Assembly (NCBI GenBank): GCA_035332125.1
Contig: DAOQNO010000001.1
Coordinates: 1-33,185 of the forward strand
Length of the DNA: 33,185 nt
Reading direction: 5' to 3'
Origin: Elusimicrobiota bacterium
Lineage (GTDB): Bacteria > Elusimicrobiota > Elusimicrobia > FEN-1173
Below are positions 3,756 through 27,146 of the stretch, piece by piece. How positions within the stretch are numbered: position 1 is the stretch's first letter; every line of letters begins with the position of its first letter. The position numbers were made by a program, and so were the translations under genes. The notes under the pieces were generated by a model that was not told the origin of the DNA, made no database searches, and worked only from the letters and a program-made list of their open reading frames with translations.

Positions 3756-3783
3756 AAGCAAAGAACGAAAGTCAGGAGACGAT

Positions 3784-10462: not shown

Positions 10463-12712
10463 ATGCGCCGCGTTTGGTGGCTCCTCCCCCTGCTGTTTTC
10501 GGTCCGGTCCGCCCGGGCCGAACGGCCGTTGGTGGTGTGGGCCATGGGCGAAGAGGGGAAAAAGATCGCCCTCATGGCCCGCCGGTTCGAGGCCGCCCAT
10601 CCCGGGGTCACCGTCGAAACCCAGGCCATTCCTTGGGAAGCCGCCCACGCCAAGCTGTTGACCGCCGTCGTGGGGGGCATTCCACCGGACGTGAGCCAGG
10701 TGGGCACGACGTGGATGGCCGAATTCGCGGCCATGGACGCGCTCGAACCCCTCGACGGCCGCGCCGCGTCATCGACCAACGCCCGTCCCGACGCTTTTTT
10801 CCCCGGATCGCTTCAAACCTGCCGCGTGGACGGCGCCCTCTACGGCGTTCCTTGGTACGTCGACACCCGCGTGCTCTTTTATCGAAAAGATTTGCTGGCG
10901 GCCGTCGGTTATCCGGACGGCCCGTCCACCTGGGAAGAGCTCACGGCCGCGGCCCGGAAATTGTCGACCCGGCGCACGGCCGACGGTCGACGGGCCTACG
11001 GCATCTCCCTCGGCGCCCGCAGCTGGACCGACCTTCTCATGGCGGTGTGGCAGAACGGCGGCGACCCCCTGCGTCCCACGTCGCCGGCTTTTTTTGGCGC
11101 CGTCCAGCATTACATCGGGTTCTTCCGCGACAATCTCACACCGACCAAGGAAGCGGCGGACGTGGATCTTTTCCACGCTTTCAAAACCGGCTACTTGCCC
11201 ATGTTCGTTTCGGGGCCCTGGATGTTGGAGCTGATCCGGAAAGAACTCCCCGAATTGGACGGTCGCTGGGGGGTGGCAATGCTTCCGGGGAAAAAATCCC
11301 GCACCTCCTTCGTGGGGGGATCCAACTTGGTTGTTTTCAAGGCGTCGAAACAAAAGGACCGGGCCTGGCAGTTCCTTGAATTCATGAGCGATCCGGCCAA
11401 CCAGGTCGAGTGGATGAAAAGCACGACCGATCTCCCGTCCGTGCAGGTGGCGTGGAAAGACCCCTATTTCAGCGACAAGCCCCTGGTGCAGGTGTTCGGC
11501 CGCCAACTGTTCGACACCGCGAGTCCGCCGACGGTGCCCGAATGGGAGCAGATCGCCAGCGCCATGGACGACACCATGGAGCGCGTGGTCCTCGATCCCG
11601 CCCAAACCGAGGACACCATCCGGGTGGCCCTGGCCGAATTGGAAACCCGCATTTTGAAACTCCGGTCGGCCCGAACCCGGGAACCGGGCAGTTGGCGGCG
11701 GTTCGGGCGATGGGCGGGCGTGGCGGCCCTTCTCCTCGCGGCGGCTCTCTGGTTAACGACGGTCGGACGCCTCCGTTCCCGGGCCGACGGCGCCCCGGGC
11801 GAAGCGCCCTTCCAGTTGCGGGAATTTTTCCAACGGGACATCGTCGGTCTGCTTTTCACCGTCCCCGCCCTGGTGCTCTTGGTGACGTTTCTTTTCCTGC
11901 CCATCGCGGTGTCCTTCCTCATGAGCTTGACCGACATTGATATTTTCAGCATCAACAAGTGGAAGGACGTTCAATTCATCGGGGTCAGCAATTACCTGCG
12001 CATCGTCCAGGACCCCGTGTTCTGGCGTTCCCTGTGGAACACCCTGTATTTCGCCGGGCTGGGCGTCCCGTTGACCATCGGCGTCTCGTTGTTGGCGGCC
12101 GTGGCCCTGAACCAGAAATTTGTCCGCGGCAAATCCCTTTTCCGCGTCGCTTTGTTCGCCCCGGTCGTGACCACCGTCGTGGCGGTGGCGGTCGTGTGGC
12201 GATGGCTCTACAACCCCGAATACGGCGCCTTCAATTGGTTTTTGCAGAATCTGGGCCTCAAAAAACTTTTCTGGCTCTCCGATTCCCGCACCTCCCTGCC
12301 GTCCTTGATCGTCATGGCCGTGTGGAAAAACTTCGGCTACAACATGGTCATCTTTTTGGCCGGCCTTCAAACCATTCCCGAAAGCCAATACGAGGCGGCC
12401 CGGATCGACGGGGCCAGCGCCTGGCAAAGTTTCCGCTACATCACCATCCCGGGGTTGGCGCCGACCCTGCTCTTCGTCCTCATCATGACGACCATCGGTT
12501 ATTTGCAGTTTTTTGCGGAACCCTACGTCATGACTCGGGGGGGGCCGCTGGATTCCACCATGTCCATCGTCCTCTACATGTACAACCACGGCTTTCGGTT
12601 TTTCAATTTGGGTTACGCCTCGGCCATCAGTTACGCCCTCTTCGGCCTGATCTTTATGTTTACCTTCGTGCAAATGCGTCTTAAGAAGAACGGATTCGAG
12701 GTGTTTGTTTGA
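10463..12712 (+). CDS. CUT1-family sugar ABC transporter with a solute-binding protein fused to a MalF/UgpA-type permease
   Basis: It has a signal peptide (MRRVWWLLPLLFSVRSARA) and a family-1 SBP pattern (LVVWAMGEEGKKIALMARRFEAAHPGVTVETQAIPWEAAHAKLLTAVVGGIPPDVSQVGTTWMAEFA). A junction TM (WAGVAALLLAAALWLTTV, ~11701-11760) leads into a 6-TM permease with an EAA loop (ESQYEAARIDGASAWQSFRYITIPGLAP, ~12378-12460). It is one uninterrupted ORF. Confidence 0.85.
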   Translation: MRRVWWLLPLLFSVRSARAERPLVVWAMGEEGKKIALMARRFEAAHPGVTVETQAIPWEAAHAKLLTAVVGGIPPDVSQVGTTWMAEFAAMDALEPLDGRAASSTNARPDAFFPGSLQTCRVDGALYGVPWYVDTRVLFYRKDLLAAVGYPDGPSTWEELTAAARKLSTRRTADGRRAYGISLGARSWTDLLMAVWQNGGDPLRPTSPAFFGAVQHYIGFFRDNLTPTKEAADVDLFHAFKTGYLPMFVSGPWMLELIRKELPELDGRWGVAMLPGKKSRTSFVGGSNLVVFKASKQKDRAWQFLEFMSDPANQVEWMKSTTDLPSVQVAWKDPYFSDKPLVQVFGRQLFDTASPPTVPEWEQIASAMDDTMERVVLDPAQTEDTIRVALAELETRILKLRSARTREPGSWRRFGRWAGVAALLLAAALWLTTVGRLRSRADGAPGEAPFQLREFFQRDIVGLLFTVPALVLLVTFLFLPIAVSFLMSLTDIDIFSINKWKDVQFIGVSNYLRIVQDPVFWRSLWNTLYFAGLGVPLTIGVSLLAAVALNQKFVRGKSLFRVALFAPVVTTVVAVAVVWRWLYNPEYGAFNWFLQNLGLKKLFWLSDSRTSLPSLIVMAVWKNFGYNMVIFLAGLQTIPESQYEAARIDGASAWQSFRYITIPGLAPTLLFVLIMTTIGYLQFFAEPYVMTRGGPLDSTMSIVLYMYNHGFRFFNLGYASAISYALFGLIFMFTFVQMRLKKNGFEVFV

Positions 12713-13554
12713 ACGCCCGGGGCAAACGTTGGATGTCCGACGCCGTTGCCGCGGGGGGCGTGCATTTCCTCCTGGCCATCGCCGCGGCGGCCACGCTGAT
12801 GCCGTTTTTTTGGATGATCTCCACGTCGTTCAAGAACGGCGGGGGGCTTTTTACCTATCCCCCCACCTGGATTCCCCGGGACCCGACCCTTCAATGGTAC
12901 GCCCAGTTGGTGCGGGAGGTGAATTTCCTGGTCCATTTCCGCAACAGCGTGTTCGTCTCCGTGGCCATCACGGTCCTGAGCTTGTTCGTCAATTCCATGG
13001 CCGGTTACGCTTTCGCCAAGCACCGTTTCCGCCATCGGGACAAAATATTTAGTTTCCTCCTGGCCACCATGATGGTTCCCGGCCAGTTGACCATGATCCC
13101 CGTTTTCCTGTTGTTGAAAAAGATGGGTTTCCTGAACAGTTTTCTTGGTTTGATCGTGCCGGTGTGCGCCAACGTCTTCGGTATTTTCCTGATCCGCCAG
13201 TTTATGATGTCGATCCCCAACGATCTCATCGAATCGGCCCGAATCGACGGTTGCTCGGAATTTCGGATTTATTGGAGCGTGGTGCTGCCCCTGTGCAAGC
13301 CGGTCCTGGCCACGCTGAGCATCTTCACCTTCATCGGGTCCTGGAACGATTTTCTCTGGCCCCTGATCGTCATGGTGCGGGAGGACGGCTACACCCTCCC
13401 GGTCGCCCTGGCCAATTTAAACGGCCAGCACCCGACGGATTTCGGTCTCCTCATGGCGGCCGCGACGGTTGTGGTCCTGCCCGTGCTCGTGGTCTTTTTG
13501 GCGGCCCAGAAGTACGTGATCCGCGGCATCGCCACCACGGGCCTCAAGGAATAA
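12709..13554 (+). CDS. CUT1-family sugar ABC transporter permease (MalG/UgpE-like)
   Basis: TTG 12709 overlaps the upstream TGA as TTGA; ATG 12733 is an alternative start. The EAA loop is NDLIESARIDGCSEFRIYWSVVLPLCKP, and the typical MalG-like motifs FFWMISTSFK and FLWPLIV are present. Confidence 0.85.
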   Translation: MNARGKRWMSDAVAAGGVHFLLAIAAAATLMPFFWMISTSFKNGGGLFTYPPTWIPRDPTLQWYAQLVREVNFLVHFRNSVFVSVAITVLSLFVNSMAGYAFAKHRFRHRDKIFSFLLATMMVPGQLTMIPVFLLLKKMGFLNSFLGLIVPVCANVFGIFLIRQFMMSIPNDLIESARIDGCSEFRIYWSVVLPLCKPVLATLSIFTFIGSWNDFLWPLIVMVREDGYTLPVALANLNGQHPTDFGLLMAAATVVVLPVLVVFLAAQKYVIRGIATTGLKE

Positions 13555-13596
13555 TTTTTCATGCATTCTCAGGAATCTTCTCAAAGGAGCGGAACG

Positions 13597-14679
13597 ATGA
13601 ACAACTTGCGAAAAGGAACGGCGTTGGCGCTGGGTCTGATGATGGCCTGGAGCCCTCTGCCGGTCCTGGCGAAAAGCAAAGGCGCGGCCCCGGCGGCGAA
13701 AAAAGCGGCGCCCGAGAAAAAAGCGGCGGCGGGCGGCGGTGTGATTCTGGACAACTTCGACCGCATCGATTGGGCCTCGGCCAAGGACGCCGGGTCGGAG
13801 CTCAAGCTCTCCCAAGCCCAGGGGAAAAACGGTTCGGCCCTAAAGATCAGCTACCTCATGGGCACCGGCAAATGGGTGGCCATCAATAAATCGTTCTCGA
13901 TTCCGAGCTTTCGGGGCAAGGCGATTTCCTTCTGGATGAAAGGCAAAGGGGCCGCCAACAACCTCGAAATCAAGCTGGTGGACGAAGACGACACGAACTA
14001 CGGCGTTAAACGTCCCTCCCTGACGACCGACGGCGACTGGGCCCAGGTGACCTTCACCGAAGCCGATTTCAGCTATTGGTGGGGCGGGGATCAATCCCTG
14101 GGCGCGGTGAAGGACCTTTACATCGCGGTGGCCGCGGCCGGCGACGGGGGCTCGGGCGAAGTGTTGATTTCCGACCTGCGCTTGGTGGCGGCCAACCCGG
14201 CCGGCGCCCTGGCGAAGGACGGTCTCGTGGCGGACGGGTCCTCCCTGGAATCCTGGACCCTCGCCAAGGGCGAAGGCGCCAACGCCACGCTCTTTTCGGG
14301 AGCGGGGTTGAAGGGGAAAGCCGTCGGGGTTCAATATTCGATCCCGGCCAACCAATGGGTGGCCATCCGTAAAACGATCAACGCCGACCTGTCGGCGGGG
14401 AACGCCGCCTTGGTCCTCCGCATTAAGGGCGAAGGCGATCCCAACAACGTCGAAGTCAAAGTGGTTGACCGCGACGAATCGACCTTTGGGAAGGTGTTTC
14501 CGGGCATGGGCGCCTCGAACGCCTGGCAGGAAGTCCGCATCCCCCTGTCGAACATGGAATACCTTTGGGGCGGGGACAATCGGCTGGACGCCACCCTGAT
14601 CCGCCATTTGGACATCGCGATCAGCGGTCCCGGCGGCGAAGGCAAAATCCTCATCAACGACATTCGCGTTCAGAAATAA
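13597..14679 (+). CDS. Secreted protein with an Ala/Lys-rich linker and 2 CBM-like beta-sandwich modules
   Basis: ATG 13597 lies 7 nt after AAGGAG (13584-13589); the ORF's maximal start is 13561. The signal peptide is MNNLRKGTALALGLMMAWSPLPVLA|KSK, followed by the linker KGAAPAAKKAAPEKKAAAGGG. Two modules follow (ILDNFD...ISFWMKGKG..LEIKLVDEDD...WAQVTFTEADF...VLISDLRL, and ...LVLRIKGEGDPNNVEVKVVDRDE...WQEVRIPLSNM...ILINDIRV). Confidence 0.8.
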   Translation: MNNLRKGTALALGLMMAWSPLPVLAKSKGAAPAAKKAAPEKKAAAGGGVILDNFDRIDWASAKDAGSELKLSQAQGKNGSALKISYLMGTGKWVAINKSFSIPSFRGKAISFWMKGKGAANNLEIKLVDEDDTNYGVKRPSLTTDGDWAQVTFTEADFSYWWGGDQSLGAVKDLYIAVAAAGDGGSGEVLISDLRLVAANPAGALAKDGLVADGSSLESWTLAKGEGANATLFSGAGLKGKAVGVQYSIPANQWVAIRKTINADLSAGNAALVLRIKGEGDPNNVEVKVVDRDESTFGKVFPGMGASNAWQEVRIPLSNMEYLWGGDNRLDATLIRHLDIAISGPGGEGKILINDIRVQK

Positions 14680-14770: not shown

Positions 14771-17700
14771 ATGGAGCGGTGCGGACAACGAAAGGGATTC
14801 ACCAACAAGGCGACGGCCGAAGGGCGGGACGCGCGGGGCGGAACGCGTTGGATCGCCGCGCTGGTGGTCCTGTGGGTCGCCGCCTCGGCGATGGCCGCCG
14901 ACGGCCTCGCCTCCGCGCGCTCCCGAGGGGTGTTCAACATCGGCCCTTCCCAGGGCACCGTCAACACGCTCCAGGATCCGGACCTCCAGAAACCGGTTTT
15001 AAAATTTGATTTCACCGCGCCGGCCGGCGCGTTGGTGGGCGTGTGGACCAAGGATTATCCCTCGACGGTGAACGCCGGGGCGGTCCAGCGCGTGGTCGTT
15101 TCGGTCAAAGGGCCGACGGTTCCGCCGCCCGCTTCCGTGGCCCTCGAGATAAAGGGCGTCCGGGAAGTTCAACGCCTCCCCCTCGTCCTGCGCGCCGGGT
15201 GGAATCGGACCGAATCGGCGATTGATTGGGGTCGCATCGGGGCTTTGAAAGAAATCGTTTTTGTCGTTTCGTCGGCCCCCGGCCAAAAGGCCGCCGGGAC
15301 CCTATTGTTTGATTTGGAATTTGCGGCCGGAGCGCCCGCGTCCGCCGCGGTCCTTCCCGCGGACGCCCAGGCCCTGGACGCGGCCCACGCCCCCGCCCGG
15401 GGGTTCTTCAACATCGGACCCGCCGACGGGAAAGCGACCGCCGTTCCGGGCCCCGACGGCCGGGGCGCGCTCCAATTCGATTACGCCATCCCGCCCAAAT
15501 CCATGGCCGGGGTGTGGACGAAAGGCTATCCGCCCGCCCTTTCCCCGGCCACGGCGAACGCGGTGGAGGCGACGGTGCGTTTTCCCGCGGCGGGCGCCGC
15601 GCGCCGTTTGTCGGCCACGGTGGAACTCAAAGGAACGAAAGCCGTCCAACGCATCCCCCTCGAGTTGACCGACGGTGTATCCAAATCCCTTCACGCCGTC
15701 GATTGGAAAACCATCGGAAAGCTCAAAGAGGCCGTCCTGGTCGTGTCGCCGGCCGGGGGGAAAAGCGAAACGGGAACCCTTCTCTTTAATTTGGCGTTCG
15801 TGAAGCGCGCCGTGTTGCCCAAAACGGGCGGCGCCCGCCGTTTGGCGGAGGTGGCGGAGCGGGGCGCATTCAACATCGGCAAAGCCCAGGGAACGATTTC
15901 CCGCGTTCGGGACGGGGAACTCCGCCGGGACGTCCTTCGGTTTGATTTCACGGCCGCGCCCAAGGCGGTCGTGGGGTTGTGGAGCAAGGGCTACGCGGCG
16001 GATTTGTCCGCGGCCGTGGCCAACGCGGTGTCCGTGGGGGTCAAAGGCGGGCGCGGGGCCCCCGTGGCCGCGGTGGGTTTGGAAATCAAGGGCGACAAAG
16101 AAACCCAACGCATTCCCCTTTCCGTGGGCGCCGAATGGACCCGAACCGATCGGGCGGTGGAGTGGGACGCGATCGGAAAGGTAAAGGAAGTCGTTTTCGT
16201 CGTCACGCCCCTGGACCCGGCCAAAAAAAGCGCGGGCCGTTTCTATTTCGATCTGGCGTTTGAAAAAACACCGGTGGCGCCCGCCGGCGCGCCGGGGTTG
16301 GGTCTCTTGAGCGCCACGGAAAAAGGCGTGTTCACCATCGGCGGCGCGGAAGGGCGCGTGGTCATCGAGTCCGAGGCCGCGGCCAAAAAAAATGTTTATA
16401 AATTCACCTACGCCGTGGCGAGCGGCAGTTTGGCGGGCGTTTGGACCAAGGGATACCCGGCCGACTTGACGGCCGCCACCGCCAACGCCATCAACGCGGC
16501 GGTTAAAACGACCACCCCGGAGCAACGGGAAACCTTGTCCGTCGCCCTTGAGTTGAAGGGCGACAAGGCCGTTCAGCGCGTTCCGTTGGAAACGGGCGAC
16601 GGGTGGGCCACCACCGAACACGCCATCGACTGGCCGACCATCGGAAATCTGAAGGAAGCCGTTTTTGCCGTCACCCCCGCCCCCGGCCGATCCAGCCGGG
16701 GCGACCTGTATTTCGACCTTTCTTTCCTCCAGGGAGGAACGCCGGATCTCGCCGGGGCCGGCGCCCCGGGCGCCTTCGGGTTGTTGAACGCCGGCAAGCG
16801 CGGGGTGTTCAACATGGGGGCCTCGGACGGCCGGATCCTCGTGGCTTTTGACGACACCGTCAAAAAGGACCTGATTCGATTTGAATTCACCGCCGCCAGC
16901 GGGTCCGCCGTGGGGGTGTGGAGCAGCGAGTATCCCCCGGCCTTGACGCCGGAAACGGCCAACGGCGTTCGCGTGGCGGTCCACGCCGCGGACGCGGCCC
17001 AGGCGGCCGCCGTGGCGGTGGCCGTTGAGATCAAGGGCCTCAAGGAAACCCAGACCGTGGAAGTTCCTCTCCACGAAGGGTGGACGACGGTGCGGGAAGG
17101 GGTGGATTGGAAAACCATCGGGGGGCTCAAAGAAGCGGTGTTCGTCGTCAAGCCGACCCCGGGCGGCGGATCCGTCAACGGGGCGCTGACGCTGGATCTG
17201 GAATTCATCCAAGGCGATTTTGTCCTGAAGAAAGGCCCCCGGGTCGGCGGTAAGATCGGCTTGGTGTTGCTGACGGGCTTCCTTCTTTTTCTCGCGACGG
17301 CTTTGGTCGGCCGATGGATCCGCGGTCGGTCGCCGTCGGTTCCGGCCCCGGACGCCATCCCCGTTCCGGGGATGGGTCGGGATCTCTTGATGGGATCCCT
17401 TTTGACGGCCGGCCTCGTCGGGACGGTGGCCACCTTCGTGGTGGGTTCCCTCCCGGGGTCCGAAGGGTCTTTCGGGTTTCTGTTGTTGGGCGCCCTGGGC
17501 GCCTTGGTGGGCGAAGGCGCCACCCGGATTCTGGCTCAACGCCCGGGCACCCCGGGCGAAGTCTTCCTGAATTTTGTCTACACCGGCTTGGTGGCCGCGA
17601 GCTCAAGCCTTCAGCCCCTGTGGTTGGCGCCCACCAACGGCGCCCACATATTCCTGAACAACCACCTGACGGCGGCGGTGTTGTTCGCGCTCTACCACGG

Positions 17701-20700
17701 GGTCAACGCCGCTTCCCTCGCCTCGACCGGGAAACCCCTTCGGCCGGTGGTCGGCGCGCTCCTCACCGGCGTTCCGACCCTTTTCGGCGCGCTCCTGGCC
17801 CTTCAGAGCGCCGGATTCGTCGAGGGCCTGGCCGACGCGCTCACCGGGGGCGGTTTCGCCGGACGCGGCCTGCTTCTCCAGACCCTGGGGCGGGTTTTGC
17901 TGGTGTTCGCGGTCAACGAAGCCGTGGCCAACGCCATCGGGCTCGCCGTCAAAGGCAAGGGCCTCACCTCGGCCCGTGGGCATTTGCTTCTTTTCGCCGT
18001 GTCGCTCGGCGTTGTCGTGGCGCCCCAAATCGCGGACGCCGGGTCGTCGGCTTGGGTCGCTTCCCTGCCGCCGCCGGCCGCGGCCGGCGTGGCCGTAGCG
18101 GCCGCCATGGTCGCCCAGGCGGGCCTGTGGGTGGAGGTGTATCTGGTCTCCGGCCTGGTGTTGGACGGGATTTACGGATACGCCCCCGCCCGGGTTCCCC
18201 TCTACCGGCACGCCGCCGTGGGCCTGCAAAAAGGTCTCGCCTTCAGCGGACTTTTCCTCGGCGTTCTGTTCGCGGTCAAGCTCGGATTGTCCGTGGCCGC
18301 GGTCCAGGAATTTCTCGCGGGATCGCCGCTGTTGGCCGGGGCGGTCCTCGGGGCTCTGGTTTATCCTTTCGCCAAGGCGATCGTGGAAAGCTTTGACGGG
18401 AGCATGTCGTTTTTCCGCCGAGCGGTCTACAGTTACCGGAACGGAACCCTTTACGTTCGCGGCGCGGTGGCGGGCGCGGCCCTGGCCTTCGGTTTCACCG
18501 GCGGGTGGGCCGCCCGTTCCACCGGCGAACGCCTCGCCTTCGGCCTTCTGGCCGGCGCCCTCGCTTCGGCGGGGATCAGTGTGCTCCGCGACGCGGTTTA
18601 CGCCGCCACCCGCCGCGGTCGCGTGGGCGTTTGGAAAATTTATCTGGTCGACGGCGGATTGGGGGCCTTCATCGGCGCGGCCTTGGCTTTTTATTTGGAC
18701 GCCGCCCAGGTGCCCGTGTTGGTGGAAAAATTCAAACTTTACACCTCGAGCGGTTTGCCCTCCCAGAACTACACGATTTACGCGCTTCTCAGCAAATGGG
18801 GCCGGGTGGATCTGGGTTCCTTTGCCGGCGGGGCCAAACTGTTCTTCAACGAATCCCTGGCCGGGGTCCTGACCTGGGCCATCGCGGCGTGGCTGTTCGC
18901 GGTCAACCGGGTGTTCATGACCGCGTACTTTCAAAAGGACAAGCAGCCGATCCGGCACTTTTTCTCCCGGGCCGGCCTCGTGGAGTTGGGCGTCAACACG
19001 ATTCACGTGCTTCGCTGGGGTCTGTGGATGGCGCCCATCATCAACACGGGCCTCCGAATGATGGGCCACGCCACCTGGTACAACCAGGACGGCGCGATTC
19101 GAACCCTGGTGGCCATCGTCAAGAACATCACGCTCCACCCCGCGGATTTTCAAGCCTGGAGCCTGAACTTGTTCGTGGCGTTGCTGGCCTACGACGCGGT
19201 CCGCGTGTTGATCTGGATCGACCACATGGGCCTGCGGGTGGCGACCCTCGTCAACCTGAGCTTCCTCGGCATGGACAAACTGGACGAACGCATCGCCCGT
19301 TTCATCGGACCCTCCGCCGCCCAGCGTTACATTCCCGAAGGGGTCAAACGGTTCACGACCTGGGCCCCGCTCCTGATCCCGTTCTACATTCCCCGGGGAG
19401 CGGACTGGGACATGGCCTGGGAAACCTCCCAAAAAATGCAGCGGGCCGCCGCCGAAGCCGGCGGTTTGGACGCTTTTCTCCGGGGCGTTTCGCCCCTGGC
19501 CTGGGCCCTCTGGGGCGCCGGCGCCCTGGCCCTCTTCACGGGACTGATTGTCCTTGGTCGCAAGCGCGCGGAACGTCGTTCGGGGGTCCGGGCCCATGCC
19601 GCGGAATTGGCGAACCGGGAGTACAAGGTGGTGATCAAGGAAAACGGCGAATTCCACAGTGAAATTCTGCAAAAGGGATACGACGTGACCCGCCGGTCCT
19701 ACGACACCCTGGACCCCGCCGGCCGAACCCTGTTTTTGGTCGACACCGAAATCCCGCTCGGGCGCCCGGGCCGCTATTGGCCCCTGGCCGGGAATTTCCC
19801 CCGGGATCGCTTCGACGCGCCCGTGGTTGAGCGTTTCGGCGACGCCCTCCGTTTGATGACTTCCTCCCACGGCGTGCGCGCCACGATCGACGTCCGTCTG
19901 CCGGACCGGGACACCCCGGCGGAGCTGTGGACCCTCACCCTGGAGAACCAGTCCGACCAGCCCCGTCAATTGGTGGCCGTTCCCTACGTGGAGTGGGTGC
20001 TGGATCGACCCGATTCCGACAAAGGACATACCCAGTATGGCCGCCTCTTCCCGGAGATGGAATACGTCCGGGAATCCAACGCCGTCCTGGCCTGGCAGAA
20101 AAAGACGAAGACCATGGGGTATCTGGCGGTTCAAACGGCGCCCCGGGGGTTCTGCACGTCCCGCATGGATTTCATCGGACGCGCCCGAAGTCTCTGGTCT
20201 CCCCGGTTGTTGGAAACCCTTAAATTCTTGGACCCGCAAGACACGGCGGGGTACCCCACCTTCGACCCCATCGCCGGCTTAAAAATCGACGTGGAATTGG
20301 GCGCCCGGGAATCCAAAACTCTCCGTCTGATTTTGGGGAGCGCGAAAAGCCGGGAAGCGGCTCTGGCCGTTCTGCAAAAGCACCTTCGACCCGAAACCGT
20401 GGCGCCGGCCAGCCCGGCCCGGAAGGGCCACCGGGTGCCGCTGATCGGCCACGGCGAAATTCCACCGGGAACGCCCCAGCCGTACTCCGACTATTCGCCC
20501 GATGGAAACACCCTGCGGGTGCACACGCCCCTTACCCCGCGCCCCTACGATCACGCCCTCTCGAACGCGGTGGGGCACTACGTGATGGTCACGAACCGGG
20601 GGCTCCACACGACCTCCAACGGCAATTCCCAGCAAAACCCCGTGACCCCCGATTGGCCCGACACGGTCACCCGGGAGCTTCCCGCCGAGGCCATTTATCT

Positions 20701-22804
20701 TTACGACCCGGAGGAAAAGGAGTGGTTTTCGCCCACCCATCATCCGTTGAACGACCCCGCGGCCAAAAACACCGCGGCCTTCGGCGTGGACGGGACCGCC
20801 GTTTTCCACATGACCAAGAATTCCCTGTCCACCGAATTGACCGTGTTCGTCCCGCCCCAGGAACCCCTGGGGATTTACCGCCTGACGGTCAAAAACAAAG
20901 GGACCCGGACGCGCCGCCTTCGGGTGGCGCCCTATTTCCAAATCGTCCTCGCCGGACAGGCGGAGCCCCGTCGGCGGCCCCTCAAAGTGACGCTGGACAA
21001 ATCCCTGGACGCGCTTTATTTTGAAAACCCGGTAAACGCTTTCCGCTGGGGTCCGGCTTTTGCCTCGCTCTCCATCCCGGCGGAACGGATCGAATCCCAG
21101 CGGGGACGCTTCTTTGGGACCGGCCGCGGGGTGGACCGCCCGCTGTTGGTCGAGCGGGGAGAGCCCGATTGGACGCAAACGTCGGACGACCGGCCGGTGG
21201 CGGGTTTCCTCGGCTCCCTGGAAATCCCCCCGGGCGAGGAGCGCACCGTGGTGGTGGTTCTGGGCCAGATCGATACCCGGGAACAGGCCGCCGCCCTCAT
21301 TCGAAAATACAAGAGCGCGGAAGCCGCCCAGGCCAGTCTGGAAGAAACCCGCCGGTGGTGGACCCGGTTGGTGGGCACCGTGCGCCTGGAAACCTCCAGC
21401 GTTGATTTCGACCGGTTCCAAAACTGGCTCAAATACCAGGCCGTGGCCGAGCGCCTTTGGGCCCGGCGCGGCTTCTATCAAACCAGCGGCGCCTTCGGTT
21501 TTCGGGACCAGCTTCAAGACTCGGTCAATCTGACCTGGGTGGACCCCGCTCTGGCGCGCAAACAAATTCTTCTTCACGCCTCCCAGCAATTCATCGAGGG
21601 CGACGTGGTGCACTGGTTCCACACCCTGCACGACGGGCGAACGGCCTTTTCCAATCGGTCCCACGCCTCGGACAACCTGCTGTGGCTGGCCTGGGCGGCG
21701 GCGGAATACGTGCGCCTCACCGGGGACGAAACGTTGTTGGACGAAATGACGACGTACTTAAGGGCCGAGAACCCCTTCCTGCCCCTGCCCCACAACAAGC
21801 ACGGCTGGGGCACCATCTATCCGCGATCCACCCGGGGCGATACGGTTTACCGGCATAGCCTGAAGGCCATCGACCTGGTCCTCGAAAAACGCATGGGAGT
21901 CAACGGAATCCCATTGATCGGCACCGGCGATTGGAACGACGGTTTGGACGAAATCGGCAGCGAGGGTCGGGGGGAAAGCGTTTGGCTCGGGTTCTTCCTC
22001 CTCTATATATTGAAGAACACCCTGAACATCATCGAGAAAAAAGACGGCCGCCACCGCCGGGATTACTACCTGAAACGCGCCCAGGAACTGGAAGCGGCGT
22101 TGGAAAAAACCTGGCGGGGGGACCGCTATCTTCGGGCCATTCACGACGACGGGACGGAGATCGGCGTGAAAGATTCCGGCGTGTGGGAAATCGACGCCTT
22201 GACCGCCGCCTGGGCGGTCATGGCCGGGTTGAACCCGGAGCGGGCGCGCACGGTCTTTCAAACGGCGCTCACCGTGTTGGAGCGGGAGAACGTTGTTCTC
22301 CTGGGCTGGCCCGCCTTGCGGGAGGACACGAAGCCCTATCTCGGGCGTAGCAGTCATTATCCCGAAGGGGTCCGGGAAAACGGCATGTACTGCCACGGCG
22401 TGCAGTGGCTTGTAAAAGCGGCGCGAATTCTCGCGGAGAAAGCGGAGGAGGACGGCGACGTCGCCAAGGGCAAGGAATACCGGGACGCCAGCTACCGCCT
22501 CTGGATGAAAATCGCTCCCCTGTCCCACGTCGCCACCGGAGAGATTGAGGTTTACGGCGGTCAGCCGAACAAGCAATCGGCCGACTTCCTTACGACCTTT
22601 GATCAGGGCCGGATGATCTGGCACGGCTACACCGGGGCCGCCGGCTGGATGCTCCGCCAGGCCTTTGAAGGCGTGGCCGGGGCTTCTCTCGTCGGAAACC
22701 AGGTGGTGATGCCCCTGGATCTTTCGGAGCTTCGCGGGCCCCTTCGGCTCAAGGCCATTTCCCGGGATTTGTCGGACAGCCCCCTTCGCCCCGGCCGCCC
22801 ATAG
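14771..22804 (+). CDS. Giant (2,677 aa) membrane-embedded GH94 glycoside phosphorylase with an exported 5x repeat array (Cgs-like but without a recognisable GT84 domain)
   Basis: SD GGAGAG (14759-14764) lies 6 nt before the ATG. The leader is signal-like (WIAALVVLWVAASAMA). Five tandem repeats span 14918-17220. A run of ~15-20 hydrophobic segments spans ~17230-19570. The C-terminal ~1,060 aa carry GH94 hallmarks: GFRDQLQD (21497-21520), VVHWFH, GTGDWNDGLD (catalytic-acid motif GDWND at 21927-21941) and YCHGVQW. Confidence 0.9.
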   Translation: MERCGQRKGFTNKATAEGRDARGGTRWIAALVVLWVAASAMAADGLASARSRGVFNIGPSQGTVNTLQDPDLQKPVLKFDFTAPAGALVGVWTKDYPSTVNAGAVQRVVVSVKGPTVPPPASVALEIKGVREVQRLPLVLRAGWNRTESAIDWGRIGALKEIVFVVSSAPGQKAAGTLLFDLEFAAGAPASAAVLPADAQALDAAHAPARGFFNIGPADGKATAVPGPDGRGALQFDYAIPPKSMAGVWTKGYPPALSPATANAVEATVRFPAAGAARRLSATVELKGTKAVQRIPLELTDGVSKSLHAVDWKTIGKLKEAVLVVSPAGGKSETGTLLFNLAFVKRAVLPKTGGARRLAEVAERGAFNIGKAQGTISRVRDGELRRDVLRFDFTAAPKAVVGLWSKGYAADLSAAVANAVSVGVKGGRGAPVAAVGLEIKGDKETQRIPLSVGAEWTRTDRAVEWDAIGKVKEVVFVVTPLDPAKKSAGRFYFDLAFEKTPVAPAGAPGLGLLSATEKGVFTIGGAEGRVVIESEAAAKKNVYKFTYAVASGSLAGVWTKGYPADLTAATANAINAAVKTTTPEQRETLSVALELKGDKAVQRVPLETGDGWATTEHAIDWPTIGNLKEAVFAVTPAPGRSSRGDLYFDLSFLQGGTPDLAGAGAPGAFGLLNAGKRGVFNMGASDGRILVAFDDTVKKDLIRFEFTAASGSAVGVWSSEYPPALTPETANGVRVAVHAADAAQAAAVAVAVEIKGLKETQTVEVPLHEGWTTVREGVDWKTIGGLKEAVFVVKPTPGGGSVNGALTLDLEFIQGDFVLKKGPRVGGKIGLVLLTGFLLFLATALVGRWIRGRSPSVPAPDAIPVPGMGRDLLMGSLLTAGLVGTVATFVVGSLPGSEGSFGFLLLGALGALVGEGATRILAQRPGTPGEVFLNFVYTGLVAASSSLQPLWLAPTNGAHIFLNNHLTAAVLFALYHGVNAASLASTGKPLRPVVGALLTGVPTLFGALLALQSAGFVEGLADALTGGGFAGRGLLLQTLGRVLLVFAVNEAVANAIGLAVKGKGLTSARGHLLLFAVSLGVVVAPQIADAGSSAWVASLPPPAAAGVAVAAAMVAQAGLWVEVYLVSGLVLDGIYGYAPARVPLYRHAAVGLQKGLAFSGLFLGVLFAVKLGLSVAAVQEFLAGSPLLAGAVLGALVYPFAKAIVESFDGSMSFFRRAVYSYRNGTLYVRGAVAGAALAFGFTGGWAARSTGERLAFGLLAGALASAGISVLRDAVYAATRRGRVGVWKIYLVDGGLGAFIGAALAFYLDAAQVPVLVEKFKLYTSSGLPSQNYTIYALLSKWGRVDLGSFAGGAKLFFNESLAGVLTWAIAAWLFAVNRVFMTAYFQKDKQPIRHFFSRAGLVELGVNTIHVLRWGLWMAPIINTGLRMMGHATWYNQDGAIRTLVAIVKNITLHPADFQAWSLNLFVALLAYDAVRVLIWIDHMGLRVATLVNLSFLGMDKLDERIARFIGPSAAQRYIPEGVKRFTTWAPLLIPFYIPRGADWDMAWETSQKMQRAAAEAGGLDAFLRGVSPLAWALWGAGALALFTGLIVLGRKRAERRSGVRAHAAELANREYKVVIKENGEFHSEILQKGYDVTRRSYDTLDPAGRTLFLVDTEIPLGRPGRYWPLAGNFPRDRFDAPVVERFGDALRLMTSSHGVRATIDVRLPDRDTPAELWTLTLENQSDQPRQLVAVPYVEWVLDRPDSDKGHTQYGRLFPEMEYVRESNAVLAWQKKTKTMGYLAVQTAPRGFCTSRMDFIGRARSLWSPRLLETLKFLDPQDTAGYPTFDPIAGLKIDVELGARESKTLRLILGSAKSREAALAVLQKHLRPETVAPASPARKGHRVPLIGHGEIPPGTPQPYSDYSPDGNTLRVHTPLTPRPYDHALSNAVGHYVMVTNRGLHTTSNGNSQQNPVTPDWPDTVTRELPAEAIYLYDPEEKEWFSPTHHPLNDPAAKNTAAFGVDGTAVFHMTKNSLSTELTVFVPPQEPLGIYRLTVKNKGTRTRRLRVAPYFQIVLAGQAEPRRRPLKVTLDKSLDALYFENPVNAFRWGPAFASLSIPAERIESQRGRFFGTGRGVDRPLLVERGEPDWTQTSDDRPVAGFLGSLEIPPGEERTVVVVLGQIDTREQAAALIRKYKSAEAAQASLEETRRWWTRLVGTVRLETSSVDFDRFQNWLKYQAVAERLWARRGFYQTSGAFGFRDQLQDSVNLTWVDPALARKQILLHASQQFIEGDVVHWFHTLHDGRTAFSNRSHASDNLLWLAWAAAEYVRLTGDETLLDEMTTYLRAENPFLPLPHNKHGWGTIYPRSTRGDTVYRHSLKAIDLVLEKRMGVNGIPLIGTGDWNDGLDEIGSEGRGESVWLGFFLLYILKNTLNIIEKKDGRHRRDYYLKRAQELEAALEKTWRGDRYLRAIHDDGTEIGVKDSGVWEIDALTAAWAVMAGLNPERARTVFQTALTVLERENVVLLGWPALREDTKPYLGRSSHYPEGVRENGMYCHGVQWLVKAARILAEKAEEDGDVAKGKEYRDASYRLWMKIAPLSHVATGEIEVYGGQPNKQSADFLTTFDQGRMIWHGYTGAAGWMLRQAFEGVAGASLVGNQVVMPLDLSELRGPLRLKAISRDLSDSPLRPGRP
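14918..17220 (+). repeat. Five in-frame tandem protein repeats (~154-160 aa each, diverged) within the giant gene
   Basis: Each unit opens with (R/K)G-x-F-(N/T)-(I/M)-G, at nt ~14927, ~15400, ~15862, ~16323 and ~16802. Each continues with L-x-F-(D/E/T)-(F/Y), G-(V/L)-W-(T/S)-K-(D/G)-Y-P, (L/V)-E-(I/L)-K-G-x-K-x-x-Q-x-(I/V/L)-P-L, (I/V)-(D/E)-W-x-x-I-G-x-(L/V)-K-E-(I/A/V)-V-F-V-V and (L/F)-x-F-(D/N)-L-x-F. Confidence 0.85.
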
Positions 22805-24032: not shown

Positions 24033-24854
24033 ATGCGGACATTCTCGTTCCTCGGCGCTTCCGCGCTGGCGCTTCTGCTTGCCCCGGTTCTCCGGGCCAA
24101 CACCTTTTTGGAGGTGCGGCCGGGGGTCGTGGAAGAGTCCGTTCCCGAGGGCAAGACGGCCAAAGGAAAATTGATCGTCCGCAACACCGGCGACACCGAA
24201 GTCCTCGTTGAAGTTGAAGTGCGGGACGAATGGGCCACGCGCACGGGCCTTCCGTCTCTTCCGCCCTCCGAATGGCTGGACCTGAAATATCCCCACCCCT
24301 TTGTTTTAAAACCCGGCGCCGCGAAAGAAGTGGGTTACACCGTCACGCCGCCGACCTCGTTTAACGGCGAAGCCATGGCCATGGTCGTTTTTGGCGGACC
24401 CACCTCCGCCGGCAGCGGCGGCACCGGATATCGATTTCGGCAAGGAATTCCCTTTTACATGTTGTCGACGACGACCGTTCAGGGCCAAATAGCCCTGGCC
24501 TCCCTTCAGGTGTATCTCAACGCGATCAAGCAGTTGGAATTTGCCGTGGAACTGAAAAACAATGGGCCCGTTCATGTCCGCGCTCAAGGGGCACTGAAAA
24601 TTTCAAACTCCCGCGGAGCGGAAATCGGCAACGCGCCGCTGGCCGGCGGCATACCGGTTTTCCCCACCAAGACGCAAAAATATTATGCGCGGGATCAAAA
24701 AAACAACTATTCCGAGGGACTTTACCGCGGCGAATTGAGCGTGGCCGGCGAGAAGGGTGAAATTCTTTTGGTCGGCGTGTGCGGTTTTCGTATCGATAAG
24801 AAAGGGCAAATCACCATTACCAGCCCTTTTGCGGAGAGACCCCGTGCGCCTTAG
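24033..24854 (+). CDS. Secreted two-domain Ig-like protein (PapD-like/DUF916-like chaperone or scaffold candidate)
   Basis: The signal peptide is MRTFSFLGASALALLLAPVLRA|NT. Domain 1 is FLEVRPGVVEESVPEGKTAKGKLIVRNTGDTEVLVEVEV...WLDLKYPHPFVLKPGAAKEVGYTVTPP. Domain 2 is LEFAVELKNNGPVHVRAQGALKISNSRGAEIG...PVFP. The 'L-x-V-x-N-x-G-x-x-x-V-x-V' strands are typical of Ig-fold periplasmic chaperone or adhesin-scaffold domains. Confidence 0.7.
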   Translation: MRTFSFLGASALALLLAPVLRANTFLEVRPGVVEESVPEGKTAKGKLIVRNTGDTEVLVEVEVRDEWATRTGLPSLPPSEWLDLKYPHPFVLKPGAAKEVGYTVTPPTSFNGEAMAMVVFGGPTSAGSGGTGYRFRQGIPFYMLSTTTVQGQIALASLQVYLNAIKQLEFAVELKNNGPVHVRAQGALKISNSRGAEIGNAPLAGGIPVFPTKTQKYYARDQKNNYSEGLYRGELSVAGEKGEILLVGVCGFRIDKKGQITITSPFAERPRAP

Positions 24855-25584
24855 CGCATCGTCTTTGATTTCAATCGGGTTCCCGGTGTTGGTGTTTTTT
24901 GCCGGCGGCCCGGCGCGCGCGCTGGATCTTAAGCCGGAATTGATTTTCCTCCGCGGGGAAGAAGGCGCCGCTGTTTCCACGACCATCGCGGTCGTCAACA
25001 ACTCCTCGGAAACAATCCGGGTCACGTTGGAGGCCCACGGGCCGGGCGAGGCGCCGGCGCCGTGGTTGTCCCTGAGTCCCCGGGCCCTGCGGGTGGCCGC
25101 GGGGGCCCGCCGTGTGGTCCGGCTGAAGGCCGTCGTTCCCAAGGCGGTCGGTGAAATGGGGGGCGAGGTTTGGGTTCGTCAGCGGGCCCCCGGAGAATTG
25201 ACCGAAACCCGGGTGGTGCGGCGCGTGGCCCTGCGCGTGGCCGGCACCGAGGTGTTTGAGGCCCAACTCAAAGACATCGAATCCGGGGTGGAAGGCAACG
25301 ACGTGGTGGTTCACGCGGTGTTGGTCAACACGGGCAACGTGACCCTTCGCGCCAAGTTGGTGGCCGATTTGGAACGAATGGACGGTCCCCTGGTTCGAGC
25401 GGTGACGGACCTGACCGGCCAACCCGTCGCCCCCGGGGAAAGTGTCCGGGCCCGGTTGGCCGCCCCCAAAGTCGGATGGTTTTGGACGGGGCGCGGGAAT
25501 CTCTCGGCCTATTACCGGGACGCCGACGGCAAAACCATCCAGATCCTTAAACCCATCGGGGAGGCGTCGCGTGGCACGCCGTGA
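24844..25584 (+). CDS. Secreted two-domain Ig-like protein, paralogue of 24033..24854
   Basis: GTG 24844 follows GGAGAG and overlaps the upstream gene by 11 nt. It yields the signal peptide MRLSASSLISIGFPVLVFFAGGPARA|LD. The two-domain logic is the same as in 24033..24854 (LIFLRGEEGAAVSTTIAVVNNSSETIRVTLEA...WLSLSPRALRVAAGARRVVRLKAVVP, then VVVHAVLVNTGNVTLRAKLVADL...). The ORF's maximal start is 24757. Confidence 0.7.
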   Translation: MRLSASSLISIGFPVLVFFAGGPARALDLKPELIFLRGEEGAAVSTTIAVVNNSSETIRVTLEAHGPGEAPAPWLSLSPRALRVAAGARRVVRLKAVVPKAVGEMGGEVWVRQRAPGELTETRVVRRVALRVAGTEVFEAQLKDIESGVEGNDVVVHAVLVNTGNVTLRAKLVADLERMDGPLVRAVTDLTGQPVAPGESVRARLAAPKVGWFWTGRGNLSAYYRDADGKTIQILKPIGEASRGTP

Positions 25585-27145
25585 CGGCTGGCTTCGCGCG
25601 GCGGTCGCGGGCGGCGCGACCCTCTTGTTGTCCGTTAACGCGGGCGCGTTGAATTTGAAAATCCGCAACGTGGCCGACGACGCCGCCGCCACGGGCGTGT
25701 CGTTCAGCTCGGCGTCGGGAGCGGCCAACCAGTACCACACCGGGCTCCAATACGTTGAAATCACCCACCCCGATTCCCACTTTCGAAAAGTGTATGTGTA
25801 CACCGATAACGGCGGCGCTTTCGGACAATCCAAGGAAGGGCTCATCAATTTGGACGACGCGGCCCAACCCGCCGTTCCCTTCTATTGGCGCAATTTCCCC
25901 GGCCGGCCCGACGACTTCGCGCCGGCCAACGAATGGGCCTGGACATTGATGCTGGAAAAATCCCTCCCCGAATTTTCGGTTCCCGCCACCAAGGACGCCC
26001 GGGCCCTCGTGACCCCGGACGCCGGCGGAATTTCCCGCGTGGCCCTGGCCTTTAAAACCCCGGCGGAAGTGGTGCGGGGTACCTACGTTTCCCGCCTCGT
26101 GCTGGAGGAGTCCAGCGACGTCGCCGACATCAACGGCCCCACGGTCGGCCACACGCCGTTCAACGACGTGATCCTGGTCAACATCCCCATCGGCGTCGAG
26201 TCGACGGCGGAAGACGACGGGTCCGTGGTGTCGTCCACCTTTTATTTCCGGCTCGACGGGACGGGGGCCTACCAGCCGCGGCCGACGGTGTTGACGCCGG
26301 ATCCGGTCAACCCCTTCAAATGGGTGGTCCAGACGACCCTGGCGCCGGGGGACGTCCACGCCGGATTCATGGACTATTATTTCGCTGCCCGGGACAATTT
26401 CGAAAACGAAACGATCACGCCCGTCTACCGGGCCAACCTGGTCCCCGAGGACGGGCCCGTGACGCGGACGATGTCGGCGGAGGGCGGCCTCACCACGGTG
26501 CCCGTGGGCGATCCCCTCCTGCCGGGCCTGACCATCGATTTCCCTCCCCGCAGCCTGAACGGCGACCAAACCATTCAGGTCACGCTCAAGCCCTCCACCC
26601 ATTACCCACCGGTGGAGGGCGGCGTTCCGTTGCGGGTCTTCGATCTGACGCCCGAAGGCCTTCGCTTCAGCCGGCCGGTCACCCTCAGCATTCCCTACCC
26701 CGACCAGGACCAGGACGGACGGGTGGACGGGAGCGGCGTCGACGAAACGCTGTTGCGGGTGTTTTGGTACGACGGCCACCTCTGGCGGTTCGTGGGCGGG
26801 CAGGTGGACCCGGTGGCCAACCGGGTGAGCGTGACGGTCTCCCACTTCAGCGTCTACAGCCTGGCCCCTCTGGCGACGACGTTGACCCCCGACATGGTCC
26901 GCCCCCAGGAAAAAATCATCACGCCCAACGGCGACGGACAAAACGATTTCGCCCAGTTCAACATCTCGGGCGAGTTCGACGTGGAATTTTTCGATTTGCG
27001 GGGCGAGCGGGTGCGGCGCCTCTCCGGCATCAACAGTTGGGACGGCCGGGACGACGACGGGAAGCTGGTTGAGACCGGAACGTATATTTACCGGTTGACG
27101 GGCCAAGGGCTGACGGTGACGGGCGCCCTGGCGGTGGCGCGTTGA
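25571..27145 (+). CDS. Secreted multidomain surface protein: N-domain paralogous to the small subunit, central Ig-like domains, and a C-terminal gliding-motility/T9SS type-B-like (CHU_C/FlgD-Ig) domain
   Basis: GTG 25571 lies 8 nt after GGGGAGG and overlaps the upstream gene by 14 nt. It gives the signal peptide MARRDGWLRAAVAGGATLLLSVNAGA|LN. The N-domain has LNLKIRNVADDAAATGVSF, YVYTDN and GTYVSRLVLEE. The central part has LLRVFWYDGHLWRFVGGQVDPVANRVSVTVSHFSVYSLAP. The CTD (~26908-27142) reads IITPNGDGQNDFAQFNISG..VEFFDLRGERVRRL..SWDGRDDDGKLVETGTYIYRL. Confidence 0.75.
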   Translation: MARRDGWLRAAVAGGATLLLSVNAGALNLKIRNVADDAAATGVSFSSASGAANQYHTGLQYVEITHPDSHFRKVYVYTDNGGAFGQSKEGLINLDDAAQPAVPFYWRNFPGRPDDFAPANEWAWTLMLEKSLPEFSVPATKDARALVTPDAGGISRVALAFKTPAEVVRGTYVSRLVLEESSDVADINGPTVGHTPFNDVILVNIPIGVESTAEDDGSVVSSTFYFRLDGTGAYQPRPTVLTPDPVNPFKWVVQTTLAPGDVHAGFMDYYFAARDNFENETITPVYRANLVPEDGPVTRTMSAEGGLTTVPVGDPLLPGLTIDFPPRSLNGDQTIQVTLKPSTHYPPVEGGVPLRVFDLTPEGLRFSRPVTLSIPYPDQDQDGRVDGSGVDETLLRVFWYDGHLWRFVGGQVDPVANRVSVTVSHFSVYSLAPLATTLTPDMVRPQEKIITPNGDGQNDFAQFNISGEFDVEFFDLRGERVRRLSGINSWDGRDDDGKLVETGTYIYRLTGQGLTVTGALAVAR

Positions 27146-27146
27146 T

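Follow-up and report, generated by a model that had tools for sequence, protein, structure and literature searches.

A gene of 8,034 nt on the plus strand (14771–22804) of a 33,185-nt stretch from an Elusimicrobiota bacterium (assembly GCA_035332125.1, contig DAOQNO010000001.1, positions 1–33,185; hereafter the window) encodes a 2,677-aa protein in which a signal peptide, five repeats resembling a carbohydrate-binding module (CBM), a polytopic membrane block and a phosphorylase of family GH94 follow one another in one chain. Both enzyme class and pathway have been described before; what is new is the membrane-embedded architecture, together with the ~750-residue block without a fold relative and the family-specific CBM-like repeat. 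The reading that we favour, and to which we give a little less than an even chance, is that this giant protein is a phosphorylase of beta-1,2-glucan or sophoro-oligosaccharides built into the inner membrane, by which glucan would be captured, passed through the membrane block and phosphorolysed inside. That the block represents a glycan translocase of a new class, supporting phosphorolysis-driven polysaccharide uptake through a previously unseen fold and without ATP, is possible and somewhat more doubtful.

The open reading frame (ORF) comprises 2,677 codons from an ATG start with no internal stop, and a GGAG lies ~10 nt 5' of the ATG, in agreement with the unbroken frame and the Shine-Dalgarno sequence described in an initial annotation of this DNA. 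That annotation had also noted a signal-like leader. The leader (14771–14902) has a positively charged n-region followed by a hydrophobic core, WIAALVVLWVAASAMA, with a hydropathy peak at aa 24–49, and is a probable Sec-type signal peptide with predicted cleavage after AMA. A Pfam scan of the whole protein matched GH94_b-supersand (PF06165; two stretches, E 1.3e-68) and Glyco_hydro_94 (PF17167; aa 2196–2637, E 8e-61) and otherwise returned only noise at E ≤ 1, so that the GH94 models were confined to the C-terminus as had been predicted; a scan against NCBIfam gave zero matches. In independent genomes there are homologues whose parts follow one another in this order. Three independent metagenome-assembled genomes (MAGs; L005, L020 and L064) each have one ORF that runs from four repeats through the membrane block to GH94, and fragments of the protein are present in other assemblies: P0062 is 98% identical and crosses the junction between repeats and membrane block, and P0179 is 99% identical and covers 69% of the GH94 query. 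Together, these data rule out an assembly chimera. All three parts of the tripartite architecture proposed initially were thus recovered, and the junctions between them are found in independent assemblies.

The middle of the protein contains no recognisable synthase domain. GT2, GT84 and the cyclase GH189 (PF10091) had no Pfam match at E ≤ 1 in the giant protein, and the family profile aligns with Cgs, the synthase of cyclic beta-1,2-glucan, only from residue 1537 onward. The structural model of the membrane block predicts no GT-A fold, nor does it have an inter-helix loop long enough to hold a GT-A domain of ~250 aa. A glycosyltransferase within aa 815–1610 was looked for with Pfam and NCBIfam (E ≤ 1), phmmer, the family profile against the Protein Data Bank (PDB) and Foldseek, and was rejected because all were negative. 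The initial annotation had reported the lack of a GT84 domain and had named the middle block for an explicit GT84/GT2 test and for a structural comparison with Cgs; the former was negative by every route and the latter did not recover Cgs. None of the 295 family proteins that we collected has a Pfam domain beyond the two GH94 ones, so that these proteins lack both transferase and cyclase. Many database entries for relatives are named 'cyclic beta-1,2-glucan synthetase', 'glycosyl transferase family 36', 'GH36-type glycosyl hydrolase domain-containing protein' or 'N,N'-diacetylchitobiose phosphorylase'. These names are automatic. The first two, given by the JGI and NCBI pipelines, are what speaks for an alternative in which the protein is an ordinary Cgs with a GT84 domain too diverged to detect, or in which the ORF is chimeric or frameshifted. 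The late start of the profile alignment, the missing GT2, GT84 and Glycoamylase/GH189 matches, and a confident all-helical model with neither a GT-A fold nor a Foldseek match to Cgs argue against a diverged synthase, and hundreds of independent assemblies showing the same architecture argue against an artefact. We regard this alternative as very improbable, and an ordinary Cgs or an assembly artefact as effectively excluded.

The GH94 module (aa ~1612–2677; 19604–22801) carries the enzymatic part of the argument. It has the N-terminal supersandwich domain and the (alpha/alpha)6 catalytic domain of GH94 glycoside phosphorylases (CAZy clan GH-Q), and its best solved relative is the GP domain of Cgs (8rf9/8rf0), which it matched at E 4e-112 as a single sequence and at E 6e-222 with the family profile. 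Residues 1614–1877 align to Cgs 1545–1808 (GP1) and residues 1921–2645 to Cgs 2050–2756 (GP2–GP3), without a Rossmann-like insert. Cellobiose phosphorylases were more distant (1e-35 with the single sequence and 1e-80 with the profile), and the 1,2-beta-oligoglucan phosphorylase (SOGP) LpSOGP (5h3z) was matched with the family profile at E 6e-8 and had no match at E ≤ 0.01 with the single sequence. By sequence comparison the module is of the Cgs GP type and belongs to a GH94 clade separate from that of SOGP. The initial annotation had leaned toward SOGP because of the ~1,060-aa size of this part; that assignment was rejected on the scores above, and the size comes from the GP1 subdomain.

Three active-site motifs were followed in 69 full-length homologues. 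GFRDQLQD, which holds the RD motif (aa 2243; 21497–21520), is kept in 68 of them, and the RD motif of GH94 and GH149 recognises sugar 1-phosphate (PMC6771811). The WND catalytic loop, GDWND (aa 2386–2390; 21926–21940), is kept in 66, and its second Asp aligns with D2528, the catalytic acid of the Cgs GP domain (PMC10901819). The stretch VRENGMYCHGVQW (22370–22408), with a conserved His and with RENGMYCH at aa 2535–2542, is kept in 63; in GH94 and GH149 this His has been linked to phosphate recognition (PMC6771811). HWFH and YCHGVQW were also found. The RD, WND and His motifs thus appear intact. All of the hallmark motifs listed initially are present, with the coordinates first given for GDWND one base off, and the catalytic Asp and the phosphate-recognition residues whose loss had been raised as a concern are retained. 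That this is a Cgs-type GH94, probably active on glucose chains with beta-1,2 linkages and serving catabolism, is the well-supported part of our interpretation.

The membrane block (aa 815–1615; 17213–19615) lies between the repeats and the GH94 module. Hydrophobic segments span aa 823–1597 by hydropathy. AlphaFold, applied to aa 815–1615 aligned with 35 homologues (alignment A2), gave an all-helical bundle of ~17–19 membrane-length helices and one beta-hairpin (pLDDT 87.1, pTM 0.86), in line with the continuous run of about 15–20 hydrophobic segments noted at the outset. A Foldseek search of this model against the PDB returned nothing at E ≤ 0.001 (best E 0.07, TM 0.07–0.15) and no match of note to GT-C, MFS, LeuT or RND proteins. 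Neither phmmer nor the family profile matched any PDB sequence within the block; with phmmer, aa 1–1610 had no match at all. An internal duplication was looked for with hhalign and was not found. On these grounds the block represents a new domain family without a known fold relative. Its first helix (aa 823–851) is a linker span confined to repeat-bearing members.

Several stretches of the block hardly vary in the same 69 homologues. ESFDGS (18386–18403) is present in all, LRWGLWM and WYNQDG (19010–19093 with the intervening loop; invariant columns of A2) are present in 69 and 67, and within the invariant motifs running from DHMGLRVATLVNLSF through TTWAPLLIPFYIPRG (19220–19375; A2 columns) DHMGLRVA is present in 66. 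The block is 42–53% identical across phyla, and Trp occupies 7 of the 54 invariant columns of A2, compared with 2.4% Trp overall. Because of this conservation across phyla, the invariant polar motifs, the enrichment of invariant Trp and the fusion of CBM-like domains at the periplasmic end, we suggest that the block is more than an anchor; the confident AlphaFold model was counted in support of this as well. We propose that it conducts sugar.

These data bear on a second explanation, which we consider rather unlikely, in which the GH94 part degrades oligosaccharides delivered by an importer while the block and the repeats conduct no sugar and serve as a membrane scaffold or sensor. The block would then place the enzyme at the importer, sense periplasmic glucan to tune the enzyme, or do unrelated ion or phosphate handling. 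The best Foldseek matches of the block, insignificant and at noise-level TM, are ion-pumping membrane pyrophosphatases and MATE or ABC transporters, and could be taken to favour this. An anchor, however, has no need of ~17 helices whose polar and Trp-rich motifs stay invariant across phyla, and Pfam recognised no signalling output domain in the protein.

N-terminal to the block are five tandem repeats of ~155 aa (aa 45–814; 14903–17212), which are predicted to be periplasmic. A repeat HMM matched aa 45–199, 203–357, 357–510, 511–666 and 670–814, each at E 1e-51 to 1e-55. The copies are only 41–48% identical to one another (alignment A1), which points to old duplications and not to assembly stutter. 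AlphaFold modelled repeat 3, from an alignment with the remaining repeats and with homologues bearing one repeat, as a beta-sandwich at pLDDT 94.1. With this model the best Foldseek match was the CBM11 structure 6r3m (E 7e-7, TM 0.65 / 0.59); 6r3m, 1v0a and 6r31 were all matched at E ~1e-6 and TM 0.63–0.65, followed by other jelly-roll CBMs. The five beta-sandwich-like repeats and the glycan-binding-like N-terminal array described initially are both borne out by these results.

The repeats and CBM11 (the Clostridium thermocellum Lic26A-Cel5E module, 6r3m and 1v0a) are predicted to share a beta-jelly-roll, and genes near the giant gene carry Pfam CBM_11 domains. By contrast, the two are ~12% identical in sequence, the ligand of the repeats is putative, and the Pfam CBM_11 model (PF03425) gave no match to the five repeats at E ≤ 10 apart from noise. 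Matches to the repeat HMM are confined to proteins of the membrane-GH94 family. The term CBM11-like therefore describes the fold alone. Homology in sequence to the CBM11-like neighbours was considered and rejected, since hhalign was weak (E 0.026–0.25) and the repeat HMM matched no neighbour protein. We infer that the repeats are periplasmic and bind beta-1,2-glucan.

The orientation of the protein can be predicted from its charged residues. Positive stretches follow helix 1 (RWIRGR) and the last helix (RKRAERR), and by the positive-inside rule the repeats would lie outside and GH94 in the cytoplasm. The GH94 module comes directly after the strongly positive stretch past the last membrane helix, which argues that it should face the cytoplasm. 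In repeat-less homologues the protein starts with helix 2 of the block, and this fits a core with both ends inside plus one extra linker span in repeat-bearing members. An odd number of spans, as expected initially for repeats outside and GH94 inside, would agree with this arrangement.

The protein is not unique. It is the longest member seen of a family with relatives in at least 546 species genomes, found in a scan of one genome per species in which Omnitrophota dominate, with others from Elusimicrobia, Planctomycetota, Verrucomicrobiota, Chlamydiota, Sumerlaeota and Desulfopila sp. IMCC35006. Cluster look-ups and a search with GH94 added MAGs from Beijerinckiaceae and Kiritimatiellae. An exhaustive HMMER search with the membrane block returned 407 cluster representatives at E ≤ 1e-3; many of these are complete proteins of 1,780–1,870 aa, consisting of the block and ~1,060 aa of GH94, and others, of ~2,000 aa or longer, bear N-terminal repeats. 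The block is nearly always fused to this GH94 clade. In the best 80 loci, which were the ones examined, the number of repeats ranges from 0 to 4, so that five in the window is the most seen, and the nearest relatives are in the Elusimicrobia MAGs L020 and L064 (65–68% GH94 identity). Of the genomes behind these loci, that of Desulfopila sp. IMCC35006 alone comes from a cultured strain. The best 120 database matches to the GH94 part are 52–69% identical, besides the 99%-identical fragment P0179 of the same protein, and nearly all are fused forms or fragments of them. A look-up of the exact protein in public assemblies gave no record. Literature searches for a characterised protein with this architecture, or for a membrane-embedded GH94 other than Cgs, found none, in keeping with what had been stated initially.

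Some members depart from the usual fused form. In a Planctomycetota MAG (L070 9896–17496) the membrane block has an 811-aa ORF of its own, after which come a short ORF, a 529-aa ORF in the opposite orientation and an SGL-like partner gene; the membrane-GH94 gene may be disrupted or split here. Proteins of ~1,634–1,644 aa (P0244, P0262 and P0263 among others, with Kiritimatiellae included) are ~200 aa shorter than usual and may have a reduced membrane block. P0185 was considered as a soluble form and rejected, since it matches the fused gene of L014 at 100% identity and is a miscalled piece of it.

Two true soluble relatives were found. P0181 (L086 8001–11189) is a soluble GH94 of 1,062 aa whose closest relative in the compared set is the window protein (66% identity), and its start coincides exactly with the start of GP1 in the window. 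The second, P0287 (L088 8001–11183), comes from Verrucomicrobia, is also ~1,060 aa long and is nearest to verrucomicrobial fused forms. Because both are nested among fused forms, the fused and soluble versions interconvert, the membrane module having been gained or lost more than once. The gene order in L086 is a CBM9 protein, a CBM11 protein, a binding-protein/permease fusion, a permease, a MalK ATPase, GH94 and an endonuclease/exonuclease/phosphatase gene; the last of these also follows GH94 in the window. A second contig with P0181 (L087) continues with a ParA/Mrp gene, as does the window. The GH94 part alone is predicted to perform the cytoplasmic phosphorolysis step of a sophoro-oligosaccharide pathway.

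The window locus itself looks like a catabolic one for beta-1,2-glucan utilisation. [quoted passage not shown] The first product (1571–2965) has Pfam Glycoamylase and DUF3131 matches, a signal peptide predicted from its sequence, and GH189/GH193 as its nearest families. In the PDB it matched the cyclisation domain of Thermoanaerobacter TiCGS (8wy1) at E 3e-55 and the Cgs CY domain at E 5e-45. Its acid/base Glu is kept, a Pro stands at the position of the nucleophile E1442, L and D replace H1536 and H1537, and the GH189-specific insert, which separates GH189 from the neighbouring glucanase family GH193 (PMC12102758), is missing. For these reasons a true GH189 cyclase, as would be expected of a split Cgs, was rejected, and a secreted beta-1,2-glucanase is more likely; the protein may be a GH193-like hydrolase or belong to an uncharacterised subgroup.

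The regulator (2985–3755) is represented by its ligand-binding domain (Pfam Peripla_BP_3 and Peripla_BP_1). Three of the four ORFs that follow (together 3742–10455) are CBM11-, CBM9- or CBM30-like by Pfam (3742–5733, 6590–7876 and 7873–10455; CBM_11, FlgD_ig, CBM9_1 and CBM30) and are probable surface glycan binders; the fourth (5730–6593) had no significant family match. The solute-binding protein fused to an ABC permease (10463–12712; 749 aa; SBP_bac_1 and BPD_transp_1) matched Lin1841 (PDB 5ysb) at E 1.2e-83 with its binding part. Lin1841 is the Sop3-5-binding subunit of the sophoro-oligosaccharide importer of Listeria (PMC12369401). A second ABC permease (12709–13554; BPD_transp_1) is followed by a 372-aa protein (13561–14679) with a weak, borderline CBM11-like match (Pfam CBM_11, E 5e-6, 27.1 bits vs a gathering cutoff of 27). 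This protein occupies the place that the MalK ATPase has in the syntenic soluble-GH94 locus L086; the window locus, by contrast, contains no ATPase gene.

Together, the Lin1841-like binder, the ABC permeases, the secreted glucanase-clan enzyme, the LacI regulator and the soluble GH94 at the syntenic position lead us to favour import and catabolism over synthesis. In the phosphorolytic import that we propose, the periplasmic CBM11-like repeats would capture beta-1,2-glucan, and the membrane block would pass glucan or oligosaccharide chains inward with the non-reducing end first. Phosphorolysis to glucose 1-phosphate (Glc-1-P) in the cytoplasm could then make entry irreversible. Such phosphorolysis-coupled uptake may work beside the ABC importer, which would handle short oligosaccharides. 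The initial annotation had offered import with phosphorolysis and Glc-1-P-driven synthesis as two possible mechanisms; genomic context favours the former and makes the latter less likely, and neither is proven.

Loci in other phyla link the fused gene to periplasmic glucan processing. An SGL-clan gene is near the fused gene in 19 of the 41 well-flanked loci (those with at least 3 kb on each side), and we cite this as support for such a link across phyla; the count includes an unrelated-looking lipoprotein type. Permeases are near it in 8 of the 41. In Omnitrophota, directly after the fused gene come an SGL-clan gene, which bears a CBM, and two permeases; genes for a histidine kinase, a ROK-family protein and a separate binding protein are close by. 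In Verrucomicrobiota, Planctomycetota and Desulfopila a repeat-less gene is followed, at times with overlapping stop and start, by a gene for a lipoprotein or secreted protein of ~700–750 aa (L077 15321–17480, L071 11069–13324, L079 15535–17655, and in L067, L068, L074 and L080), and no transporter was seen in the flanks of these two-gene loci. Pfam gave no match to the ~700–750-aa protein, and in the PDB its sole relative is EeSGL1, a GH192 beta-1,2-glucanase (E 2e-8). It appears to form a new branch within the SGL clan, with a putative beta-rich domain at its C-terminus.

The two-gene module resembles opgG-opgH and is one of the points that speak for a third explanation, which we judge unlikely, in which the protein is a synthase and exporter. 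GH94 would run in reverse and extend beta-1,2-glucan from Glc-1-P at the non-reducing end, the block would export the chain, the repeats would guide it as BcsB guides cellulose, and the periplasmic SGL-clan enzyme would trim or cyclise it, giving a system that resembles Cgs or OpgGH but has no nucleotide-sugar transferase. It is consistent with this that the GH94 module is nearest to the GP domain of a synthase, that many copies stand alone among housekeeping genes and that one fused gene adjoins a gene for a Wzx-like flippase. BcsA, too, has this geometry, with the chain elongated at a cytoplasmic site and fed into a channel. By contrast, the window locus resembles a catabolic one in make-up, the syntenic importer locus has a soluble GH94 in place of the fused form, and in the neighbouring SGL-clan enzyme both the nucleophile for GH189 transglycosylation and the His pair are missing. 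In addition, cellular phosphate far exceeds Glc-1-P, which favours phosphorolysis, and known glycoside phosphorylases are catabolic in vivo.

The same loci also bear on the scaffold or sensor. An ABC importer in the window locus and the interchange of soluble and fused forms in evolution are what it would predict, and the GP domain of Cgs has a scaffolding role independent of catalysis (PMC10901819). The two-gene modules and the stand-alone genes have no partner importer in their flanks, and this argues against it.

Against phosphorolytic import, in turn, several points have to be set. No glucan gene is nearby in 22 of the 41 well-flanked loci, and some copies lie among housekeeping genes. The repeats are predicted to match CBM11 in fold alone, with putative ligand binding, and the beta-1,2 specificity is drawn from similarity to Cgs and from context. 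No protein of known function is homologous to the block, whose conduction of sugar is likewise putative. An ABC importer is already encoded in the window and in the Omnitrophota loci, so that a second uptake route looks redundant, and the soluble forms nested among the fused ones show that the enzyme works without the block.

Some other features of the window were also recorded. Domains that are CBM11-, CBM9-, CBM30- or CIA30-like are unusually dense in it (3742–10455, 13561–14679 and 25442–29260), and one of the CBM-like proteins has an FlgD Ig-like domain. The binding-protein/permease fusion recurs in L086 (745 aa, confirmed by Pfam), and there is a strong, end-truncated match in L064. Downstream of the giant gene, the plus-strand ORFs 24033–24854, 24757–25584 and 25442–27145 overlap, the first two have no family matches, and gene boundaries there are uncertain; the third encodes a protein with a C-terminal CHU_C domain (type IX secretion), which is notable if the organism is a relative of Elusimicrobia. 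At the other end, an ORF at 1–1440 (479 aa, GC 67%, with ATG at base 1) may be cut by the window edge; Pfam gave it no match at E ≤ 0.001.

The usual view of glycoside phosphorylases is that they are soluble enzymes of the cytoplasm. Here, an entire GH94 clade is joined to a large conserved membrane domain without a known relative, often behind exported sugar-binding-like modules. Should glucan pass through the block, polysaccharide would be crossing a membrane in a new way, with energy conserved as Glc-1-P. Phosphorolysis-driven uptake would be the glycan analogue of group translocation, and its mirror image, Glc-1-P-driven export, would be equally new. The family is concentrated in the poorly understood Omnitrophota, Elusimicrobia and Planctomycetes-Verrucomicrobia-Chlamydiae (PVC) and offers a way into the carbon metabolism of these groups and into the natural turnover of beta-1,2-glucan. 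Metabolic reconstructions that trust the label 'cyclic beta-1,2-glucan synthetase' are likely to be wrong for this family.

Among known systems, Cgs is the closest to the GH94 part: GP1, GP2 and GP3 align, the D2528 position is kept, and in both proteins the GP domain follows a membrane span. The giant protein differs from Cgs in lacking the GT84 transferase, the in-chain GH189 cyclase and the Rossmann-like (RFL) insert (Cgs 1847–2012), in having an exported N-terminus, and in having an unrelated ~750-aa block where Cgs has its six-helix membrane domain. The giant protein probably does the same job as the SOGPs (EC 2.4.1.333; Lin1839 of Listeria innocua and LpSOGP), cytoplasmic phosphorolysis of sophoro-oligosaccharides. 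The SOGP gene cluster, like the window locus, has a Lin1841-type binding protein and ABC permeases, and the SOGPs share with the GH94 part an extra N-terminal domain and a size of ~1,060 aa. They belong to a different GH94 clade, however, and are soluble, whereas the giant protein is fused to the membrane block and the CBM-like repeats. A looser analogy may be drawn with BcsA-BcsB and OpgH-OpgG, which suggest how a cytoplasmic site for the non-reducing end could sit by a polytopic membrane domain, with carbohydrate-binding modules and a glucanase partner in the periplasm. By contrast with these systems, the giant protein has no GT2 and no similarity to them in sequence or fold, its predicted chemistry is that of phosphate and Glc-1-P, and its context points to breakdown.

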